Of a stretch of 64,000 nt of DNA, positions 4,561 to 59,942 are shown piece after piece. The stretch lies in assembly GCA_044450965.1 (NCBI GenBank), contig JBIOJO010000011.1:13091-77090 (forward strand), written 5' to 3'. Position 1 is the first letter of the stretch. Each line of letters starts with the position of its first letter. The notes under the pieces are model-generated. The model searched no databases. It was not told the DNA's origin and worked only from the letters and a program-made list of their open reading frames with translations. Origin of the DNA: Elusimicrobiota bacterium (GTDB lineage: Bacteria > Elusimicrobiota > Elusimicrobia > UBA1565 > UBA9628). Both the position numbers and the translations under genes were made by a program.

Positions 4561-6776
4561 TTCAGGGCCTGGGCGATTCGTTCCGGCGTGACGGGGAGTT
4601 CGGTGATGAGGCGTCCGGTGGCGTGCTTGACGGCCGCGGCCACGGCGGGTCCGGGCACGTCCATGGGCAGTTCGCCCACGCCTTTCGCGCCGAACGGTCC
4701 GCGCGAGTAGGGCTGCTCCACCAAGGTGACGTCGAACGGCGGCGTGTCCAGGCTGGTGGGGATGACGTAGTTCGTGAGCTGGGAGTTGATCATCACTCCG
4801 TCCTTGTAAACCGGCTCCTCCAGAAGGGCCCAGCCGAGGCCCTGGGTGGAGCCGCCGATGATCTGCCCTTCCGCGAACAGGGGATGGATGGCCTTGCCGA
4901 TGTCCTGGGCGGTGGTGATCTTCACGACGCGGACCTCGTAGGTGGACTTGTCGATCTCCAGGTCGGCGGCGAAGGCGGCGTACGAGTAGACGCCGTAGGC
5001 GTCTCCTTGATAAGTCTTGTCGTCCCAGGTGACTTCCGGCGGCTTTTCGTACTGGACCTCGAAGCGGCGGGCGGGGTTGGCGCCGCACAAGACGGCGGCG
5101 GCTTTCTTCAGCTCCGCGGCGGTGCGGGGAACGCGGCCGTGCTCGGCTTGGAACGCCGCTTTCATCTCGGCGGCGGCGCGCTGGACCAGGCCGCCCACGA
5201 CCATGCAGGTGCGCGAGGCGACGGTGGGGCCTGAGTCCGGGACCTTGTGGGTGTCCGGGGTCTCCACCTGAAACCAGTCGATGGGCATGCCCAGCGCGTC
5301 GGCGGCGACCTGGGAGAACATGGTGTTGGTGCCTTGGCCGATCTCCGTGGAGGCGGCCAGGACGAACAAGCCGCCGTCCTTGGTGAGGGCGACGCCGGCG
5401 CGGCTGGCCAAATAAACCTCGCCCGAACCGGTGAAGCCGGCGCCGTGGTGGGCGACGGCCAGGCCGATGCCCTTCCAGGTCGAGTTCTTCGAATTCTTGT
5501 TCCAGCGGTCGTACTCTTTGCGCTTGGCGGCGTACTTGGAGCGCTTGACGACGATGTCCAGGCATTCCGCGGCGCCCACGGACTCGCGCAGATGCTGGCC
5601 GGTGGCGGTGATCGTGCCCAGCTTGAACAGGTTCTTCCGCTTCAGCTTCAGCGAGTCGATGCCGAGGGCGTCGGAGATCTTTTCCCAGTGCAGTTCGGCG
5701 GCGAACAGGGACTGCGGGGCGCCGAAGCCGCGGAAGGCGCCGTTGGGGGGCGTGTTGGTGGCGATCACCTTGGAGCGGACGCGGACGTTGGGGCACTCGT
5801 AGGCGCCGGCGGCGTGAAGGGTGCCGCGCGAAAGCACCACGGACGACAGGGTCGCGTACGCGCCGCCGTCCATCAGCAGCTCGATGTCCTGGGCGACCAT
5901 GGTTCCGTCCTTCATCATTCCCGTCTTGTGGCGGGCCACGGCGGGATGGCGCTTGGTGGTGGCGGCCATGTCCTCGTGGCGGTCGTAAACGATCTTGACG
6001 GGATGTCCGCACTTGAGCGCCAGCAGGGCGGCGTGGCCGGCGATCATGGACGGATACTCTTCCTTTCCGCCGAAGCCGCCGCCGGTGACGGTCTGGATGA
6101 CGCGGACCTTGGTCTCGTCGCGGTCCAGCATGACTTTGAGAGCCTTGACCACGTAGTAAGGGCACTGCAGGGAGCCGGTCACCACCATGACGCCGTCTTC
6201 TTCCCAGGCGGCGACGGCGTTGTTCTCGATGTACGCCTGTTCCTGGGCGGGGGTGCGGTACTCGCCTTCCACCACGAAGTCGGCTTTGGCGAAGCCGGCG
6301 GCCACGTCGCCCTTCTGGATCATGTACGACTTGAAGACGTTGTCTTCTTTATAAATCTTCGCCTTCAGCGCGAGGCCTTCTTCCAGGGTCAGCGCGGCGG
6401 GCAGCTTCTCGTACTCGATGGTCACGCGCTTGGCCGCCTCGTAGGCGGTCGCGCGGTCGGGGTGGGCGATCAGGACGATGGCTTCTTCGCGGTGTCTCAC
6501 CAGCCCGTCGGCCAACAGCGGTTGGTCCGGCTCGATGAGCGTGACGACGTTCTTGCCGGGGATATCCTTGGCGGTGACGATGGCGCACTCGCCCCAGGCG
6601 AACGCGGGATCGAATTTAACGGCCTTGATCCGGCCGTGCGGCACCGACGAACGCACGGTGACGCCATGCCAGCAGCCGGGGAATTGATGGTCGTCCAGGT
6701 AAAGCGCGCGCCCCGTCAGCTTTTCCGGACCCTCGCGGCGCGGCATGCTTTTCCCGACGTTCGCCATGCCGGGCAT
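4557..6776 (-). CDS. Molybdopterin-binding large subunit of a xanthine dehydrogenase family oxidoreductase
   Basis: 739 aa. GxGGGFGGK motif and aldehyde-oxidase/xanthine-dehydrogenase a/b hammerhead and MoCo-binding-like regions. First gene of the L-S-FAD-unknown operon. Start could also be 6767. Confidence 0.9.
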   Translation of the reverse strand: MPGMANVGKSMPRREGPEKLTGRALYLDDHQFPGCWHGVTVRSSVPHGRIKAVKFDPAFAWGECAIVTAKDIPGKNVVTLIEPDQPLLADGLVRHREEAIVLIAHPDRATAYEAAKRVTIEYEKLPAALTLEEGLALKAKIYKEDNVFKSYMIQKGDVAAGFAKADFVVEGEYRTPAQEQAYIENNAVAAWEEDGVMVVTGSLQCPYYVVKALKVMLDRDETKVRVIQTVTGGGFGGKEEYPSMIAGHAALLALKCGHPVKIVYDRHEDMAATTKRHPAVARHKTGMMKDGTMVAQDIELLMDGGAYATLSSVVLSRGTLHAAGAYECPNVRVRSKVIATNTPPNGAFRGFGAPQSLFAAELHWEKISDALGIDSLKLKRKNLFKLGTITATGQHLRESVGAAECLDIVVKRSKYAAKRKEYDRWNKNSKNSTWKGIGLAVAHHGAGFTGSGEVYLASRAGVALTKDGGLFVLAASTEIGQGTNTMFSQVAADALGMPIDWFQVETPDTHKVPDSGPTVASRTCMVVGGLVQRAAAEMKAAFQAEHGRVPRTAAELKKAAAVLCGANPARRFEVQYEKPPEVTWDDKTYQGDAYGVYSYAAFAADLEIDKSTYEVRVVKITTAQDIGKAIHPLFAEGQIIGGSTQGLGWALLEEPVYKDGVMINSQLTNYVIPTSLDTPPFDVTLVEQPYSRGPFGAKGVGELPMDVPGPAVAAAVKHATGRLITELPVTPERIAQALK

Positions 6777-7146
6777 CTTACCAAAATCGCCTGGCGGGGG
6801 GAGGGGTGTAGCCGCCGTTTTGGTTCTTTGCTTTTAAGCATCGCCCCCCGGTAACGGGCGAATATAAACAGCCTAATTACCCGAGCGTTGCCTTAAAAGC
6901 AGCGAACCAAAAACGGAGGCGTCCGGGCTCCGGTGTTAGTGCTTTTCAGCGGCGGCGGCAGCCTTTTTCTGTTGCTTCATCCAATCCTTGTTGAGAGGAG
7001 ATGCCGAGGGGGGCGGCGGGGGCCGCCATTATCGGCGTGATGTGCCGGGGTCATCAGAGGCATCCATCGGACAAATATAAGCCACTTCCCGATCGCGATG
7101 ATCACTGGGGCACATCAGGCCGATTTTGAAATAAACCGGCCTATCT

Positions 7147-7827
7147 TTAATGCTTTTCTTTCGTGCTTACCGATTTCACGGCTGCCTTCTGTTGTCTCTT
7201 GAGCCATTTCTTCCAATAAAAAATTTCTTCTTGGAAGGCCTTCTTTACTTCTGGAGAATCGACACTTTGATCGGTTAAGACGGCAGACACGGATTGATCG
7301 GGTTGACCTTTGGCATCATTCCTACCAGTAACTTGGACGGCTTTCTCAAGTTTCCCGTCAGTGCTGATTCGGAACCAATACGAAATCGCATCTTGCCCGG
7401 AAGATTTCCGCATATATGTGTAGAAGCAGGATGGGTGGGTTTTGGTTAGAGGGGTCGAATTGTCAGTATTAATGGAATATACGACTGCGCATTCGTGGTG
7501 TTCCCAGCTAGTTTTATTGCGAGGAGTTTCAACCTCGACCACCTTGATGGGTATGGAAGCTGGAAATCCGAGATGCGGATTTACGGACTCATCATCGAGT
7601 GTATCAGCCGTTCCTGCTTTCTGCAAATAATCGACGAGTTGCTGAACCCCGACTTCCTCATCTTTTACCGAATCCCTAAGAATATTTTGGCGAGGAGACT
7701 TGGAGTGCTCATCTGAGGGGGATGCTTTTTCGCCAGCCTTGACAGTAAGCGGAAGCAGCATCATACTAGCGAACAGGGAAATGATTGTGATGTTGTGGCG
7801 GCTATTGACGGATAATATGAATCTCAT
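7147..7827 (-). CDS. Secreted hypothetical protein encoded in an AT-rich island
   Basis: Start trimmed to MRFILSVNSRHNITIISLFASMMLLPLTVKA (signal peptide). Local GC about 45% versus ~70% genome background; no recognisable domain. Confidence 0.6.
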   Translation of the reverse strand: MRFILSVNSRHNITIISLFASMMLLPLTVKAGEKASPSDEHSKSPRQNILRDSVKDEEVGVQQLVDYLQKAGTADTLDDESVNPHLGFPASIPIKVVEVETPRNKTSWEHHECAVVYSINTDNSTPLTKTHPSCFYTYMRKSSGQDAISYWFRISTDGKLEKAVQVTGRNDAKGQPDQSVSAVLTDQSVDSPEVKKAFQEEIFYWKKWLKRQQKAAVKSVSTKEKH

Positions 7828-10039
7828 ATCGTTGGTTAATTGTAACACGCACGAATTGACCGTCAAGACCCATGCGCGGCGTGGAGTCAGACGAACAATA
7901 TTGATTTCTGCCTTGATATGTCTAGGACCCAGCGTCGCATTTGCTCGGAAGGGTTTGGATGTCGTGCTTGCGGAGACCCGTAATAATAAAACTGCAGACG
8001 GAGCGCTCGCAGCAAAAGCCAAAGCTCTTCAAGACCAAAATAACAATCTGGCAGATAATAAAGTAGTGGCGAATCAGCTTGCTGATATTCAATCAGAAAG
8101 AACGCAACGCGCGCAGCAGAGCTACGGATACGCTGATGAATATAAAGACAGCGGGGAGATGCAGCAACTCGCGGCGGATTACGCTGTTCAGCGGGGTGAG
8201 TGGGCTCAGGGCCGGACGTTCGCGGATCGAGCAGTCAATTTGGCCGGCAGCGACCCGGCGAAACTTCTTCTAGCGCTGGAATCCTCGGCAAAAGTCTCGT
8301 ATGAGATGAAAGATTATGCTCGGGCGGCGGCGGACGCCGAGCGCGGGCTCAAATTGAAACGGGACGATCCGAATCTTCAATTCATACTCCATGCTTCGAA
8401 GGGACGCGGGGCTGTAGGCGGCTCAGCAACTACTGCCGGAACGGCCGCTCCGGCTCAGAATTCGGCGACGCCGCCAGCCGCTATCAGCGATGTCCCGCGC
8501 GTGCGGATGACGGATATGCATGCGCTGGAAGCGAAGCCGTTCATCGATAAGTCCGACAATTTTCTGCGGTTGAAGGATTATCGCAGCGCGTTGAACGCGG
8601 CGATGAAGGCGGCGGCGCTGGATCCGAACAGCGGCGACGCGTATATGCATCAGGCGATCTCGCTGGCGGCGCTGAGGCAACTGGGGGAGGCGCTGAAGAT
8701 TTTGGACAAGGCGATCGCGGCGTTCTCCGCGAACGGGCCGCGCGACGCGCTGCCCGCGGCGCACAACCTGCGGGCTTCCTATAAAAATGAAGCGGGGGAT
8801 TACTCGGGGGCGAAGGCGGACGCCAGCGCGGCGGTGGGGATCAATCCGAAGTTCGCCGACGGGTATTACCAGCGTTCGCTCGCCGAGAAGAATCTGGGGG
8901 AGAAGGCGGAGGCGGCCTCGGATCTCAAGGAAGCGGCGACGTACGATCCGGAACGGTATCAGAGCCTCTATCTGGCAGCGGCCCGGGAAACGGAGGGCGC
9001 CGACGAGGCGGCCCAGCCGCGCCGAGGAGCGCCCTCGGCGTTTTCGCGGCTGACCGACGCGACGGGCGGCGGATTGTCGCTGCTGGTGGGCACGGCCGGA
9101 GCGCTGTTCGTGCTGTTCGCCGCGTACGTGTTCTTCTTCGCCAAGGACGGCTCCCGCATGCGGCGGTTCACGACGTGGTCCACGCCGGACGCGCGGCCCG
9201 CGCCCGCCGACGACGGCCCGCTGGCGATCAGCGCGAAGTACGCGCGCGGCCGCAAGGTCGGATCCGGCGGGATGGGCGACGTTTACGAGGGGAAGGACAA
9301 CGAGCTCCGCCGCCGCGTGGCCATCAAGAGCCTGCGCGCCGAGCTGCAGTCCCGCCCGCGGGAACGGGAGCGGTTCGTGGAGGAGGCGCGCAAGGTCGCC
9401 GCCCTTCATTATCCCAACATCATCGAGATCTACGACATCGTGCAGGCGGACGCGGGGACGTTCATCGTGTTCGAGTACGTGGAGGGCCAGACTTTGCACG
9501 ACGTGCGCAGCGAAAGCCCGCGGCGCCGGCTGGAGCCCAAGCAGGCGCTCAAGTATCTGCGCCAGGCCGCGGAGGCCGTGGATCACGCGCACGGCCGAGG
9601 CGTCGTGCACCGCGACCTGAAGCCGTCGAACATCATGATCGACGAGCACGGCCGGATCAAGGTCATGGACTTCGGCATCGCGCGCTTCGTCCAGGACACC
9701 ATGCGCGACATCCAGACCAACACCATCGTCGGCACCCCGCCCTACATGGCGCCGGAGCAGTCCTCCGGCAAGGTGACCAAGGCGTCGGACATCTATTCCC
9801 TGGCGGTGTCGTTCTACGAGATGCTGTCGGGGGAGCTGCCCTTCCGCGGCGACGACTTGAGCGCCAAGATCGGCCGCAGCTTCACGCCGCTGTCGCTACT
9901 GGTGCCCGGACTGCCTCCGGCCGCGGACGCCGTCGTGGCCAAGGCGCTGGATCCCGATCCGGAGAAGCGCCAGAAGACCTGCCTGGAGTTTTACGAGGAA
10001 GCGGCCGCCGCCTTCGACGAGAAGACGACCCCCGCCTGA
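7817..10039 (+). CDS. Ser/Thr protein kinase with N-terminal extracytoplasmic TPR-like sensor domain, one TM helix and C-terminal Hanks kinase domain
   Basis: Kinase motifs VAIK, HRDLKPSN, DFG, APE in the C-terminal third. TM segment LSLLVGTAGALFVLFAAYVFFFA. N-terminal signal-like RRTILISALICLGPSVAFA. Start is ambiguous: ATG 7817 overlaps the divergent gene; TTG 7856 is an alternative. Confidence 0.9.
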   Translation: MNLISLVNCNTHELTVKTHARRGVRRTILISALICLGPSVAFARKGLDVVLAETRNNKTADGALAAKAKALQDQNNNLADNKVVANQLADIQSERTQRAQQSYGYADEYKDSGEMQQLAADYAVQRGEWAQGRTFADRAVNLAGSDPAKLLLALESSAKVSYEMKDYARAAADAERGLKLKRDDPNLQFILHASKGRGAVGGSATTAGTAAPAQNSATPPAAISDVPRVRMTDMHALEAKPFIDKSDNFLRLKDYRSALNAAMKAAALDPNSGDAYMHQAISLAALRQLGEALKILDKAIAAFSANGPRDALPAAHNLRASYKNEAGDYSGAKADASAAVGINPKFADGYYQRSLAEKNLGEKAEAASDLKEAATYDPERYQSLYLAAARETEGADEAAQPRRGAPSAFSRLTDATGGGLSLLVGTAGALFVLFAAYVFFFAKDGSRMRRFTTWSTPDARPAPADDGPLAISAKYARGRKVGSGGMGDVYEGKDNELRRRVAIKSLRAELQSRPRERERFVEEARKVAALHYPNIIEIYDIVQADAGTFIVFEYVEGQTLHDVRSESPRRRLEPKQALKYLRQAAEAVDHAHGRGVVHRDLKPSNIMIDEHGRIKVMDFGIARFVQDTMRDIQTNTIVGTPPYMAPEQSSGKVTKASDIYSLAVSFYEMLSGELPFRGDDLSAKIGRSFTPLSLLVPGLPPAADAVVAKALDPDPEKRQKTCLEFYEEAAAAFDEKTTPA

Positions 10040-10869: not shown

Positions 10870-11310
10870 CTACTGCGGCATCAGGTCGGTCGAGCAGTTG
10901 GTCTGGCTGCAGGTCATCGTCGGCCGGGCGCCCGGCTCCACGTCGTAGGTGATCACGTACTGCGTGTAGGTGGCCACGTTCGTGTTTCGCGTGACCGTCG
11001 CTTTCCACGCCGGGCTGCCGGTGCCCGCGGCGAAGACCGGGGCGCTGAAATACTTCATGGTGGGAATCTGCATGTCCCAGCCGCTGCAGGCCGAGACGGC
11101 GCCGGTGCAGTAGCCGCCGGTGGCGGCCAGGTAGCGCTCCTGCGCGCCGCGGACGGAATCCAGAGTGGTCAGCGCTTCGCTGACCTTGCCCTTCTCGACG
11201 ACCTTGAAGTACTGGGGCACCGCGATCGCGGCCAGGATGCCGATGATCAGCACCACGACCAGCAATTCGATCAAAGTGAAGCCTTGGTTCGACCGGAAAC
11301 GTTTCGGCAT
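10870..11310 (-). CDS. Type IV pilin-like / pseudopilin protein (prepilin N-terminal methylation domain)
   Basis: Start trimmed to [34 protein letters not shown], the class III signal peptide motif G/FTLIE. Confidence 0.75.
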
Positions 11311-11368
11311 GAGGGTGCCTCTCAGTTTAATTGGCCGTCGAGGAAAATGATAGAAAAAAGAAAGACGC

Positions 11369-13147
11369 CTAAGGGCCATTTTTTAGCGAAACGACAGGAA
11401 AATAAAGTCCTTTGCGTTCCCGCTTCCACCAGGAGCCGTCGGCGCGGCGCTCGTCGGCGGTGGAGAAGCGCGTCGCCCAGACCGTCGCCCGGGCGTACAG
11501 GGGCTTTTCACTTCCCAGCGGCGAGGGCCCCATCAAGCTCTCCACCGGGGAGCCGCCCTGCAGCAGGCGGTAGATCAGGTTGTTCATCCACGGGCTGGGC
11601 GCGCCCAGCGAGGCGAACCACATCTGCCAGTCCAGACGGGGCATGTGCGGCGCCACGAAGGCGGGCGCGCGGCGCGGGTCTCCGGGTTTCCATAGGAACG
11701 GCCATTCGCGCCACTCATGGCCGTCGGCGGAGACCTCCACCATGATCTCGTCGCGGGAGGTCGTCATCACCGCGAACAGCCCGTAGGAATTGATGGAGCG
11801 CAGGGGCTCCGCGAAGGACAGGGCCCGCGGAAATAGGCTTCCCGTCAGCCACAGCGCGGCGAAGGTCGCCAGCGCCCGCGCCCGCCACGGCGAGGCGGCG
11901 CGGGGCACGGCCTTCGGCGCCCAGCGCGCCAGCCACGGGCGGGAGTCGTCCAGCGCGGACAGGCACAGCACGAGGGTCAGCAGGTTGAAGAAGCCGTAGT
12001 TCCCGGTGAGCGCGATCAGGAGCATGAGCGCGGCGATCAGCGCGGCGCCGAAGGCGCGGACGCGGCGCGGGCCCAGCAGCAGCCACGGCGCGCCCAGCTC
12101 CACGGCGAACATCAGCGCGCAGGACAGCTTTTGAACCCCGAGCGGCAGGCGGTTCGCCCACCAGGAGAGAGGCGACGGAAGCGGCTGGCTCCAGTAGTGG
12201 TAGGTCAGCGCGGTGAGATCCCGCCAAGCGGCGTCGCCGCTGAGTAGCTTGACCATCCCCGACTGCAGGATCAGCTTGAAAAGCAGGAGGCGCATCATCC
12301 ACAGAGCGCCGCGCGAGGTCGCCGTCCGCCGCCGCGGGTTCCACGCCCACGGCGCCAGGAAAAGGGCGATGAGTCCCGTCTCCAGGAGCAGGACGTCCCA
12401 CTGGTAGCCCATGAACTGGGAACCGACGCCGCACAACGACAGGTACAGCGCCCAGCACGCCAGCGCGCACGGACCCGCGGCGACGTTCAGGATCAGGCCC
12501 AGCGACGCCAACGCTCCGGCCCAGCACATTCCGACCAGCGCGGCGTCGGACGCGGAGAACCAGGCGAACGTCGGCAGGAGCCAGAAGCGTTCCGGCCCGA
12601 CCTGCTTCGCGGCCGCGTCGAGATACTGCGCCGCCGGAAGAAGGCCGTCATGTCCGATCAGGCCCCGGACCTGCACGCCCAAGGACCAGAAGGCCGCCAG
12701 GTAGCACAGCCCCAGGCCCGCCAGAAGAGCGCGGGAGGTTCCGTCCACGCGCGCGGGTACCGGGGAATCGCCCCAAAATATTTTCGTCAATCGTGAAAAC
12801 GCCGGACGGCGCGCCGCGACGAAGCGGTAGGCGGCTTCGCTGGCCGCGCGGAAGGGGGGCAGGCTCCTGTAGAAGAAAAGGCCCGCCCGGTAGGCGCCGC
12901 CGGCGCGGTCCAGGCTGCGGAAAACCGCCTCGGCGCCGCGGGAGATCGTCCCGTCCGGTTCAACCAGGTGAACGGCTTCGCCCAGGTCGGCGGGAGACAG
13001 CTTCGGGAAGCGCGCGGCGGCCTTCTGCGAGGGGAGGTACTCGACCGCGTCGCCGGTCGCCAGGCGCCAGCGCTCGATCCAGAGCCGGCAGAACCCGCAG
13101 TCGCCGTCGAAGACCAGGACGGGTTTGGAGGGCTTCATGGTTTTCAT
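11369..13147 (-). CDS. Fusion protein: DCC-family thiol-disulfide oxidoreductase (DUF393) N-domain plus lipase-maturation-factor (LMF1)-like polytopic membrane domain
   Basis: N-terminus [12 protein letters not shown] (DCC motif), followed by ~500 aa with many TM helices resembling LMF1-family proteins. Confidence 0.8.
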
Positions 13148-47476: not shown

Positions 47477-48224
47477 CGAGCTTTTCGAGGCCGGACAGAT
47501 TCGGCGATGCCGCGTCGGGCGCTACGCCGAGCTCTTCCAAAGGCAGATTCAAGCGGTTGACCCAGAACGTCTTGTAGCCGAAAGCCTTGGCTCCGGCCGC
47601 GTCCCAACCGGCGAAGGCGACGAAGACGATCTCGTCTCGCTTGAGGCCCAGCGCGTCCACGGCCATCTGATACGCCCGGGGATCGGGCTTGTAGGTCTTG
47701 AGCCTGTCCGTGCTGATCGCTTGCTCGAAAATCCCTTCCAGCCCCGAACTCTTGATGTCGGCTTCGAGCATCTTTGAAGTGAAGTTGGAGAGGAAAACCA
47801 GCCGGATTCCCGCGCCCTTGAGCGATCGCAGGATCGCCGGAGCGTCCGGCCAGGGCTTCAGGTCGAGGTAAGCGTCCATCAATTGCTTCCGCTCGTCGGC
47901 CGAAAGCTGGAGCTTCTGCTTTTTCGCGGCGAACACCAGCGCGTCCTCGGTGACTTGCCAAAAATCGGCGTAGGTGCCGGACATGGAGCGCAGCCACGTG
48001 TATTCGAATTGCCGCGCGCGCCAATCGTCGCAGAGGGCGGCGCCTTTGCCCGGGAAGAGTTTCTCCGCAAGGTCGAATACCGGGCGAGGGTCGAAGACCG
48101 GAAAGGCATCGAAGGCGACGGCTTTGATCTTGGAGCCGGGCGCGGCCGATGCGGTCGCGGTCAGTCCCAGAAGGAGGACGACGATGCACGCGGCCGAGCG
48201 GACTCTTCTCAGTGATGACGTCAT
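47463..48224 (-). CDS. HAD-superfamily hydrolase, 2-haloacid dehalogenase-like, with signal peptide
   Basis: Motif I AVAFDAF and conserved HAD motifs II-IV; signal peptide MTSSLRRVRSAACIVVLLLGLTATASA. Confidence 0.75.
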   Translation of the reverse strand: MTSSLRRVRSAACIVVLLLGLTATASAAPGSKIKAVAFDAFPVFDPRPVFDLAEKLFPGKGAALCDDWRARQFEYTWLRSMSGTYADFWQVTEDALVFAAKKQKLQLSADERKQLMDAYLDLKPWPDAPAILRSLKGAGIRLVFLSNFTSKMLEADIKSSGLEGIFEQAISTDRLKTYKPDPRAYQMAVDALGLKRDEIVFVAFAGWDAAGAKAFGYKTFWVNRLNLPLEELGVAPDAASPNLSGLEKLVNQP

Positions 48225-48240
48225 AGGAGGGATTCTATTT

Positions 48241-48272
48241 AAAAAGAAGAACCGGAGGCTGCGTGCCTCCGG
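48241..48272 (-). terminator. Rho-independent terminator downstream of the NTase-HEPN operon
   Basis: 8-bp GC stem CCGGAGGC/GCCTCCGG with a 5-nt loop, followed on the minus strand by TTCTTCTTTTT. Confidence 0.55.
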
Positions 48273-48393
48273 CTCTATCTTTATGAAGACTGCTCTCGAA
48301 AGTGGCGGCCCAGTCTATATGAAAGATAGAACTTTCAAGATAGAGTTCACTGTCAGCGGGGTCGGTGCGGTTTCCAGCTGACAAGGCCCGCGA

Positions 48394-48837
48394 TCACTTG
48401 ATCAGGAGAGGATGGCGTTTGCCGATGAGGCCGTGGAGAAGAGATGAAAATTTCTTGGCCTCACGGACCAGTTCCGTGACTTCTTGCTCGGACGCGACCT
48501 CGGTTCCAAGGTATTCCGCCAGGTTTCTTTTGGACCGGCAGTCGTCCAGATAATCCAGCACGTGATGGTGCTCCGCGTCCATGAGCTTGCGCAGCGCCAT
48601 GAACACGGTATGGTGGTGGCCTTGGCCCGCGGTGCGGTACCCTTCCGCGGCGAGGAAGGCGCGTCCCGCCTGGAGCGCGGCATTGTAGGCGATCGTGAGG
48701 CGGCGATCCTCGGAGAGACCCTTCACATGCGCATCGGCCAGATCGCGCTTGACGACGTCGAACAGCTTGCCGATTTCCTCGGCGGTCGCCTTATGAGGCT
48801 TAAGACGGCCCGAGTCCAAGAACTCTTGTAAACTCAT
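48394..48837 (-). CDS. HEPN-domain protein (nucleotidyltransferase substrate-binding-like), cognate partner of the upstream NTase
   Basis: All-helical ~147 aa with HEPN-like features. Directly follows, and overlaps, the NTase gene. Confidence 0.6.
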   Translation of the reverse strand: MSLQEFLDSGRLKPHKATAEEIGKLFDVVKRDLADAHVKGLSEDRRLTIAYNAALQAGRAFLAAEGYRTAGQGHHHTVFMALRKLMDAEHHHVLDYLDDCRSKRNLAEYLGTEVASEQEVTELVREAKKFSSLLHGLIGKRHPLLIK

Positions 48838-49405
48838 CTTCGGTGCCTATGATAAAAATTTTTGGACCCTTCAGGACGTCCTTGATAAAGGAGTCTCCTT
48901 TCTTGAGCCGGGCCTGCACTTCTTCAAGCGTGAACCGCGAAGTGTTGACCTCGCGCGACAATGCGGCCTTGGTTCCGGCAAGCGCCTTGTGGACCAGGGG
49001 GCCGGAGACCTTGCCCACGATGAACAAGTCTAGATCGCTCTCCGGAGTCTCCTCCCCTTTGGCGACCGAACCGTAAACGAACGCGAATCGGATGCCGGAC
49101 AGCTGGGTGAGGGCCGCGCGCAGGCTTCCGCCGAGTCCCGCGGTCTTGATGACCATAGCCTTGAGTTCGGGGTAGAGCGTGAAGGCTTGATTGACTTGCA
49201 TGTAGCGCCGATTTCCAGAGGTTTCGCGCTTCAAAAATCCCAGACGTTCCAAGCGGTCGAGTTCGACCTTGACCGCTCGCACGTCGGCTTTGATGAGCCG
49301 CGCGGCCTCTCTCAAGTATAGACGCTCTCCCGGCCTCATGGCGAAGGCGGCGATGAGGCGCGCTCGGGTGCGCGACGCGAAGATCCCTTCCAAGAGGTCC
49401 GCCAT
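48800..49405 (-). CDS. Nucleotidyltransferase (Pol-beta superfamily MNT) with N-terminal winged-helix HTH
   Basis: GSVAKGEETPESDLDLFIV matches the minimal-NTase GS-x9-13-DxD motif; N-terminal ArsR/MarR-like HTH. Confidence 0.75.
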   Translation of the reverse strand: MADLLEGIFASRTRARLIAAFAMRPGERLYLREAARLIKADVRAVKVELDRLERLGFLKRETSGNRRYMQVNQAFTLYPELKAMVIKTAGLGGSLRAALTQLSGIRFAFVYGSVAKGEETPESDLDLFIVGKVSGPLVHKALAGTKAALSREVNTSRFTLEEVQARLKKGDSFIKDVLKGPKIFIIGTEDEFTRVLGLGPS

Positions 49406-49418
49406 ATCGTTGCTAAGT

Positions 49419-49436
49419 ATACAACGAACGTTGTAT
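49419..49436 (+). promoter_or_regulatory. Perfect 8-2-8 inverted repeat ATACAACGAACGTTGTAT upstream of the NTase-HEPN operon; candidate autoregulatory operator
   Basis: Palindrome lies 14-31 nt upstream of the NTase start codon (49405). Confidence 0.4.
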
Positions 49437-49478
49437 GAAAGTCAACGGCATATATGTCGCGTTGCTGAAGGTGTCGGG

Positions 49479-49514
49479 AAAAGAAAAAGCCGCGCTCTCA
49501 ACAGAGGCGCGGCT
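49479..49514 (-). terminator. Rho-independent terminator downstream of tRNA-Asp
   Basis: Stem AGCCGCGCTCT/AGAGGCGCGGCT with a CAAC loop, followed on the minus strand by a T-rich run (TTTTTCTTTT). Confidence 0.55.
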
Positions 49515-49532
49515 CTTGCTCGGTAAAATTTC

Positions 49533-49607
49533 CGGGGCCAACGGGATTCGAACCCGTGATCTCCGCCTTGACAGGGCGGCGTGTTAGGCCAGCTACACCA
49601 TGACCCC
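49533..49607 (-). tRNA. tRNA-Asp (anticodon GTC)
   Basis: Manual cloverleaf: acceptor GGGGTCA/TGGCCCC, T-loop GGTTCGAAT, anticodon loop CUGUCAA. No encoded CCA. Confidence 0.85.
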
Positions 49608-49651
49608 AGCGCGACAGTATAACACATTCGCGCGAATCCCGCCAAACCGTC

Positions 49652-59913: not shown

Positions 59914-59942
59914 TTGACAGGCCATGTACGGTCCGCTACACT
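59914..59942 (+). promoter_or_regulatory. Sigma70-like promoter TTGACA-N17-TACACT upstream of the CHASE2 kinase gene
   Basis: Consensus -35 and near-consensus -10 with 17-nt spacing, ~45 nt upstream of the ATG at 59986. Confidence 0.4.

Follow-up and report, generated by a model that had tools for sequence, protein, structure and literature searches.

In the Bacillus comQXP(A) locus, conservation is poor over the signal gene and over the 5' part of the receptor-kinase gene, which encodes the sensor, and is kept over the remainder of that gene and the flanks (PMC6334282). Nucleotide identity between comQXP types is about 65-70%, with near-identical housekeeping genes (PMC4408185). In the Ecl18kI restriction-modification system, one promoter lies inside the partner gene, and RNA polymerase at one promoter interferes with the other (PMC2760811). 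That paper also cites the face-to-face promoters pR and pL of phage 186 (Dodd, 1990; Callen, 2004; both as cited in PMC2760811). In excludons, such as those of Listeria, interference and RNase III make expression mutually exclusive (PMC12288877). Here we describe a locus that shares features with these systems, in a stretch of 64,000 nucleotides (nt) from an Elusimicrobiota bacterium (GenBank assembly GCA_044450965.1, contig JBIOJO010000011.1, positions 13,091 to 77,090 of the forward strand), which is called the window below. A gene for a small, probably secreted protein and a divergent gene for a receptor-type kinase meet there in a sharp AT-rich trough. Comparison with related sequences indicates that this island is an ancient, vertically inherited two-gene cassette of an uncultured Elusimicrobiota clade and not a recent import. 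Its main parts are as follows.

7147..7827, minus strand: small gene, 226 amino acids (aa), secreted or periplasmic protein of an unnamed family, from the open reading frame (ORF) and the family alignment
7817..10039, plus strand: receptor-type Hanks Ser/Thr kinase gene, starting at ATG 7817 (740 aa) or TTG 7856 (727 aa)
7050..8100, no strand: trough core, GC 0.42-0.50, hypervariable, with 40-58% nt identity to the closest relative (locus L001) against 82-94% in the flanks
8100..8500, no strand: transition zone, GC 0.53-0.65, 59-69% identity to L001, GC at third codon positions (GC3) 0.53-0.63

The mean GC content of the window is 0.667. By 500-nt bin it falls to 0.488 at 7001-7500 and 0.478 at 7501-8000, is 0.570 at 8001-8500, and has fully recovered by about 8600. 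The lowest 500-nt segment starts at 7123 and has a GC content of 0.452, about 4.8 standard deviations under the window mean. A sliding-window survey of the 64 kb found no comparable trough at the 500-nt or 1000-nt scale, and this is the sole stretch below 0.55 at either; at the 200-nt scale there are eight further dips, each at most 400 nt long with GC of at least 0.485. The AT-rich island reported in a preliminary description of this DNA is thus real and unusual for the contig, although the background is 67% GC and not 70%. GC3 of the small gene is 0.46, compared to 0.72-0.96 for other window genes in an ORF-based survey, which is crude, includes some wrong-frame ORFs and was used for the range of real genes only. 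The encoded protein is Lys-rich, and Gly, Ala, Arg and Pro (GARP) make up 0.19 of its residues versus 0.32-0.37 elsewhere. Lesser dips (GC 0.49-0.53 over 200 nt) occur at 11157-11476, where a type IV pilin-like gene (N_methyl motif) has its 5' end and upstream region, and as three short stretches within 48139-49610, adjoining tRNA-Asp.

Nine loci were compared: the window (W), L001, L006, L008, L010, L012, L013, L014, and L015, all from Elusimicrobiota metagenome-assembled genomes (MAGs) or metagenome contigs. L001 was recovered through the kinase and the other seven through members of the small-protein family. The small gene is divergent from a gene encoding a TPR ectodomain, a transmembrane helix and a kinase in all nine. 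When the loci are aligned on the junction of the two genes, GC is 0.47-0.55 from about -600 to +300 in every one, with flanks at 0.60-0.70, so that the trough spans the whole small gene and about the first 100 kinase codons. Small proteins of the nine loci are 33-65% identical, and the N-terminal kinase region is homologous in all relatives. Pairwise identities of small protein, ectodomain, and catalytic domain correlate with each other (r = 0.88-0.93, from few taxa), and in a four-point test on four taxa the cassette distances give the topology of the kinase body (sums 0.74 vs 0.80 and 0.80). Because the trough, the pairing and the homology are common to all nine loci and the identities co-vary, a recent import is rejected. 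The low-GC segment is ancestral, and the horizontal replacement of the sensor end put forward in the preliminary description does not hold. The trough is deepest in the W/L001 lineage, where small-gene GC3 is 0.46-0.50 versus 0.55-0.72 in the other loci. GC at first and second codon positions (GC12) of the small gene is 0.44-0.50 in both groups, and that of typical genes is about 0.56 in both.

Mobility signatures were also sought. There is no tRNA within 40 kb of the island (the nearest in the window is at 49532), and no mobility genes adjoin it, the window neighbors being XDH and cytochrome c genes. A repeat search gave only short GC-rich chance repeats, with no flanking repeats or mobile-element signature. 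The neighborhood of the module in W and L001 differs from that in the other seven loci. In L006-type loci, the kinase gene is followed by two conserved genes without Pfam hits, of about 335-364 aa and about 500-545 aa, the latter with a Gly-rich N-terminal region (L006 1049-3622; L008 47-2667; L010 1003-3731; L012 1-1629; L013 1-1665). An FtsH-like AAA/M41 protease and DUF2332 come farther along; the 64-kb window has none of these genes. In L008, a TPR-Ntox10 polymorphic toxin gene and an Imm27 immunity gene (5605-7160, GC 0.49-0.54) adjoin the small gene, which by gene content places another fast-evolving conflict system next to the cassette. When genome contigs were scanned with the ectodomain alignment, the sole result was an unrelated TPR hit in Prevotella, and a metagenome scan returned one kinase relative, on a contig too short upstream, and one weak hit.

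Divergence between close relatives is concentrated in the cassette. Between W and L001, XDH and cytochrome c proteins are 89-91% identical (synonymous divergence, dS, 0.42-0.47), compared to 44% for the small protein and 25% for kinase residues 16-86, and synonymous differences are saturated throughout the trough. Nucleotide identity of this pair falls from 82-94% in the flanks to 40-58% at 7000-8000, and is 59-69% up to about 8500. The L006-L012 and L010-L013 pairs are 88-97% identical on both sides and 41-63% identical from -550 to +300, with a conserved islet (76-81%) over the promoter and signal-peptide segment. Conserved flanks with a variable trough (82-97% vs 40-63%) are therefore seen in three independent genome pairs. 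In L006-L012 and L010-L013, small-gene dS is 1.11-1.36 versus 0.21-0.38 in five flanking genes, and dS is about 0.13-0.6 in the kinase body and at least 1.6 in its first ~80 codons. Both dS and nonsynonymous divergence (dN) of the cassette are 4-5 times those of the flanks, with dN/dS about 0.2. The hypervariable zone extends from the small-gene body to about the first 80-100 kinase codons and ends inside the kinase gene.

Relaxed constraint on GC3 was considered as the sole source of the high dS. A TPR gene adjoining the small gene in L010/L013 has GC3 of 0.64/0.61, like the small gene (0.64/0.66), and its dS is 0.31. Because this control of equal GC3 diverges normally, GC3 constraint alone does not explain the excess, and that explanation is rejected. 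On these comparisons the kinase gene is mosaic in rate or age of divergence. The "mosaic gene" of the preliminary description is apt to the extent that the first 80-230 kinase codons diverge far faster than the rest; it is, however, a standing property of the family.

The small protein was described earlier as a 226-aa secreted protein with no recognizable domain, and the family data agree. It has no match in Pfam, NCBIfam, or PDB, including a profile search of PDB sequences. A word-indexed homologue search found only the protein itself, and exact-sequence look-ups of the 226-aa and 205-aa forms returned no contig. An exhaustive HMMER search recovered 99 cluster representatives (clusters at 50% identity), all of about 200 aa, 42 of them at E <= 1e-10; the protein is therefore not an orphan and belongs to an unnamed family. 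Family members share a hydrophobic N-terminus that resembles a signal peptide and ends in V-[N/K]-A before a polar mature start (VKA|GE in the window protein), two conserved Cys, and a Lys-rich C-terminal helix (SPEVKKAF..E..YWLKDWLKKQ). Residue V29 is almost invariant among 40 members. The protein thus looks secreted from its sequence features. An AlphaFold (AF2) model built with 33 homologues has a predicted local distance difference test score (pLDDT) of 77, with a core above 90, and consists of an alpha+beta core of one helix and seven strands plus a long C-terminal helix. A Foldseek search of PDB with this model had no significant match (best E 0.019, TM <0.25). The dN/dS of about 0.2 in relatives points to purifying selection, and because this value comes with a confidently predicted fold, the protein appears to be maintained.

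The kinase has a basic and hydrophobic signal sequence, an ectodomain of about 375 aa, a single transmembrane helix followed by basic residues, and a C-terminal kinase domain.

7946..9016, plus strand: periplasmic all-helical ectodomain, predicted, with two TPR-like modules and a disordered Ala/Pro/Thr linker between them
9074..9139, plus strand: transmembrane helix LSLLVGTAGALFVLFAAYVFFF, then basic residues, read from the translation and conserved in relatives
9239..9970, plus strand: Pkinase catalytic domain (aa 475-718), PF00069, 182 bits vs a cut-off of 31.7

The catalytic motifs GSGGMGDV (GxGxxG), VAIK, HRDLKPSN, DFG, and APE are all readable in the translation. The NCBIfam PknB_PASTA_kin match covers only the kinase part, at 283 bits versus an equivalog cut-off of 450. 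Only the first ~50 ectodomain residues lie in the deep trough; trough and transition zone together hold the first module, which extends to about aa 200. Pfam TPR hits are confined to aa 245-379 (best TPR_2 at 25 bits vs a gathering cut-off of 27), and the first 200 aa of the kinase, encoded by the island, have no Pfam TPR hit. An AF2 model of the ectodomain from a shallow alignment has pLDDT 80 and 16 helices. Foldseek matched it to consensus TPR and OGT TPR superhelices (E 1e-8 to 1e-7, probability 1.0), and the ectodomain is accordingly predicted to be a TPR-like helical-hairpin superhelix. The extension of the kinase into the island, as proposed in the preliminary description, is supported by the signal peptide, by this helical ectodomain and by homology to full-length relatives.

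Both genes are shortened in the NCBI annotation. The small protein is entered as 205 aa with its start at 7764, a call that cuts off the N-terminus, as the 226-aa start is needed for the signal-peptide-like segment seen in the family alignment. The kinase is entered as 510 aa from ATG 8507 in the window and as 505 aa in L001 (start 6486). The ~230 codons upstream of the NCBI start are open and homologous in L001 (704-aa ORF), P0004 (766 aa), and L004 (743 aa), with the invariant motifs QRxQQxYGxAD and HASKGRG. Judged by this homology they are clearly coding, and the PGAP start at 8507 is too short. The called starts at 8507 and 6486 are the points where GC-rich codon usage resumes. This suggests that the composition model of the gene caller rejects the AT-rich part, with the result that both signal peptides are lost from database entries. 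The gene models of the preliminary description are right and better than the truncated NCBI versions of both genes.

The start codons also overlap as described earlier: ATG 7817 of the kinase and ATG 7827 of the small gene share 11 nt (7817-7827), and TTG 7856 is an alternative in frame with the kinase ORF. Seven loci (the window and six others) have an ATG in frame and a few codons ahead of the NCN motif, and for this reason ATG 7817 is favored. In L015, L002, and L004, the kinase start corresponds to TTG 7856. From the reading frames, the window kinase may start at either codon.

Each gene has a predicted promoter inside the signal-peptide codons of the other. The transcription start sites (TSSs) were placed 7 nt after each -10, and the consensus used was that of sigma-70, which may not be the one proper to Elusimicrobiota.

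7739..7767, plus strand: predicted kinase promoter TTGACA-17-CATACT, 10/12 consensus, TSS at about 7774
7839..7866, minus strand: predicted small-gene promoter TTGACG-16-TGtTACAAT with extended -10, 10/12 consensus, TSS at about 7832 and leader of about 5 nt
7774..7832, both strands: predicted head-to-head transcript overlap of about 59 bp, from hexamer positions, covering the starts at 7817 and 7827

The kinase promoter sits in the codons T-V-K-A and A-S-M of the small gene, and the small-gene promoter in codons N-C-N and V-K-T of the kinase. In the small protein, TTGACA corresponds to the reverse of T/L-V-K/N codons and CATACT to the reverse of S-M/I codons; in the kinase, TACAAT is the reverse of N-C-N and TTGACG of V-K-T codons. 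Only five sites of at least 10/12 consensus occur on both strands of the window (128 kb of strand).

The four hexamer blocks are the conserved part of the junction. All nine loci carry TTGACA-N17-[C/A]ATACT on the kinase strand. For TTGAC[G/T]-N16-TGnTACAAT, on the small-gene strand, the extended -10 occurs in nine of nine and the -35 in eight; the exception, L015, has a poor -35 and retains the TG-extended -10. There is almost no conservation outside the blocks, and in the motif-anchored junction alignment 22 of 27 hexamer-block positions are invariant versus 7 of 233 elsewhere. Eight loci have 69-72 nt between the end of the plus-strand -10 and the ATTGTA block, and L015 has 84 nt. In both L001 and L015, the ATTGTA...GTCAAGA block is conserved even though it falls outside the reading frame of the kinase. 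Synonymous choices are fixed in every locus (Ser AGT, Cys TGT, Val GTC, and a third-position T before GTC). Since the block is out of frame in two loci and synonymous sites are fixed amid saturated synonymous change, the blocks are conserved at the DNA level.

Leaders of the small gene vary. The predicted leader is about 5 nt in the window and about 13 nt in L006, L010, L013, and L014, in which 6-7 nt separate the start codons. It is about 35-45 nt, with a GGAG/GGAGG Shine-Dalgarno sequence, in L001, L008, and L015, and in L012 only if an upstream GTG start is used. The tRNA-Asp gene of the window is preceded, within 49416-49645, by a comparable TTGGCG-18-TGnTATACT ending 7 nt before the mature 5' end, so promoters of this type seem to be used in this organism. 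Further strong sigma-70-like sites in the window are TTGACT-18-TATACT (49445-49416, minus strand), TTGACG-16-TATAAT (23452-23425, minus strand, 11/12), and TTGACA-17-TACACT (59914-59942, plus strand), which could serve as a promoter reference set for this organism. A near-perfect palindrome, TTAACG-N2-3-CGTTAA, lies about 23 nt upstream of the kinase -35, centered near -58, in L006, L008, L010, L012, L013, and L014; the window and L001 lack it. This candidate operator doubles as coding sequence for the conserved L-x-x-V-N in the mature part of the small protein.

The stretch from the small-gene stop to the XDH start (6777-7146 of the window, read as minus-strand RNA; 4857-5154 in L001) contains two long hairpins. 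Their arms are at 7031-7056/7099-7124 (26 nt) and 6818-6838/6892-6912 (21 nt), and both are conserved in L001. The first has compensatory changes (GAUGUG/CACAUC vs GAGGUG/CACCUC). The fold z-score is -3.2, with no Rfam family. The hairpins may form a leader or operator of the XDH operon or a terminator of the small gene. An Rfam search of 6500-8700 gave nothing credible.

Taken together, these observations make it somewhat more probable than not, in our judgment, that the locus is a co-diversifying module of secreted protein and receptor kinase with mutually interfering promoters, carried as an old vertical cassette. The two promoters would fire toward each other, and the mRNAs would share an antisense 5' overlap of about 59 nt over both start codons. 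As the overlap would cover both initiation regions, expression of ligand and receptor could be mutually antagonistic through transcriptional interference or duplex formation, as in an excludon-like switch. The small protein is a putative ligand or co-receptor that would bind the N-terminal tip of the kinase ectodomain, and the two could co-diversify into specificity types, as comX does with the 5' end of comP. Once divergence keeps it from recombining with other alleles, such a cassette would escape the recombination-associated force that raises GC (PMC4450053), to which the GC3 of about 0.9 elsewhere may be due, and would drift to an AT-biased mutational equilibrium. AT-richness would be a by-product, with a Lys/Asn/Ser-rich and Gly/Ala/Arg/Pro-poor protein and the embedded promoters adding to the low GC. 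The link from recombination escape to low GC3 is the weakest step, and a locally raised mutation rate is a live alternative to it.

Several points weigh against the co-diversifying module. Because the four-taxon topology of the cassette agrees with that of the kinase body, allele exchange is not demonstrated, and acceleration in situ would be equally compatible with the data. Synonymous divergence of the cassette approaches saturation. Both the promoters and the TSSs are predicted from the sigma-70 consensus, which may not hold in Elusimicrobiota. The count of invariant positions was made on an alignment anchored at the motifs, although an unanchored alignment of five loci gives the same blocks. 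Since all loci are derived from MAGs or metagenomes, strain mixtures could affect assembly of a polymorphic region. For the question of allele classes, the nine loci come each from different MAGs.

The strongest alternative, which we hold to be unlikely, involves no special biology: a weakly constrained accessory gene under AT-biased mutation, encoding a Lys-rich protein, with ordinary promoters that overlap through tight packing, and with neither a ligand-receptor pair nor a role for interference. Low GC12 (0.44-0.50) fits such a gene, as does the GARP-poor composition common to the family, and L010 and L013 have low-GC genes nearby that diverge normally. However, pairing, orientation, and the 69-72-nt promoter spacing are kept in eight of nine loci despite saturating divergence. 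The dS is 4-5 times that of the control gene of equal GC3, the hypervariable zone ends inside the kinase gene and not at a gene border, and dN/dS with the confident fold argues that the protein is maintained.

A raised local mutation rate could instead be primary, for example through transcription or collisions at head-on 5' ends, without diversifying selection or old alleles, and would produce both the high dS and the enrichment in AT. It would account for the joint rise of dN and dS at a steady dN/dS of about 0.2, for the congruence of cassette and kinase-body trees, and for a zone centered on the promoter pair. We give it a small share of the probability, as the zone is about 900 nt compared to a predicted overlap of 59 nt and covers the whole small gene asymmetrically, and the conserved central promoter islet (76-81%) would require selection in any case.

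Another improbable reading is that the invariant blocks owe their conservation to the peptides they encode (S-[I/M] and V-[N/K]-A in the signal peptide of the small protein, NCNT...VVKT at the N-terminus of the kinase) and not to a promoter function. In its favor, seven of nine kinase ORFs have an upstream ATG in frame with the motifs, and V29 of the small protein is nearly invariant. NCNT/VVKT as a conserved N-terminal peptide was nevertheless rejected, being out of frame in two loci while synonymous positions are fixed in every locus against a background of saturated synonymous divergence; in addition, both blocks fit sigma-70 hexamers with 16-17-nt spacers, and the invariant extended -10 TG is kept even in the locus with the poor -35.

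A recent horizontal origin of the island, or of the sensor end as a replacement, in low-GC donor DNA that has yet to ameliorate, has in its favor an atypical composition (GC3 0.43-0.48 vs about 0.9 in neighboring genes), a sharp right boundary near 8100 and the differing neighborhood of W and L001, and is very improbable, and rejected as a recent genomic island, given the same trough over the same genes in nine of nine loci at 33-65% protein identity, a kinase N-terminus homologous throughout, parts whose identities co-vary (r ~0.9) in a congruent phylogeny, the lack of tRNA, integrase or flanking repeat, and a GC3 boundary that is not the same in W and L001.

A more specific form of the co-diversifying module can be put forward as a speculation that we consider rather doubtful. 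The locus could be a protein-based self-recognition or quorum system, in which a folded secreted protein and the tip of a eukaryote-like, single-pass receptor Ser/Thr kinase diversify jointly into specificity types, the promoter pair within the two signal-peptide coding regions acts as a bistable sender-or-receiver switch, and the persistent trough is a compositional trace left by prolonged suppression of recombination in the cassette.

Horizontal transfer is the routine reading of a sharp GC trough in a GC-rich genome; the present trough marks what appears to be an old, vertical, hypervariable cassette. The same compositional bias probably makes standard annotation drop the 5' ends of both genes, and the secreted and receptor nature of the products is then lost from databases. 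The locus points to an uncharacterized signaling module in an uncultured phylum, with a secreted family of 99 clusters paired with a Hanks kinase of receptor topology in nine of nine loci. Its evolutionary pattern has so far been described for peptide/histidine-kinase quorum systems, and the predicted promoters, each fixed within signal-peptide codons of the opposite gene, clearly illustrate dual coding constraint. A full-text literature search for Elusimicrobia and Hanks-type kinases returned nothing relevant.

Compared with known systems, the locus shares with genomic islands an atypical base composition and codon usage and a hypothetical protein, and differs in being present and in synteny in all relatives examined, in lacking mobility genes, tRNA or flanking repeats, and in its congruent phylogeny. 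Bacterial Hanks-type transmembrane kinases usually have an N-terminal kinase domain. The present kinase resembles PknB, PrkC, and Stk1 in its Pkinase score (182 bits) and its complete set of catalytic motifs, whereas its order is reversed, with an N-terminal sensor behind a signal peptide, a C-terminal kinase and no PASTA domains. Like face-to-face promoter switches, it has two opposed promoters, here predicted ones, at short distance, with transcripts predicted to overlap at their 5' ends. In contrast to those switches, both promoters lie in the signal-peptide codons of the partner, no regulator binding site was identified in W or L001, and TSSs and interference are predicted.

The likeness to comQXP lies in the pattern of divergence, with nucleotide identity of 41-63% in the cassette and 88-97% in the flanks. 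The receptor here is a single-pass Hanks Ser/Thr kinase with a TPR-like ectodomain, whereas that of comQXP is a polytopic histidine kinase, and the putative signal is a folded protein of about 20 kDa and not a modified peptide. No gene for a modifying enzyme is present, the genes are divergent and not co-directional, and the pattern is read between loci of different MAGs or metagenome contigs. Polymorphic signal/receptor cassettes and face-to-face promoters are each already known. What appears to be new is their combination, the putative partnership of a folded protein as ligand with a receptor kinase of the Ser/Thr type, and the dual coding by which both promoters lie in signal-peptide codons.

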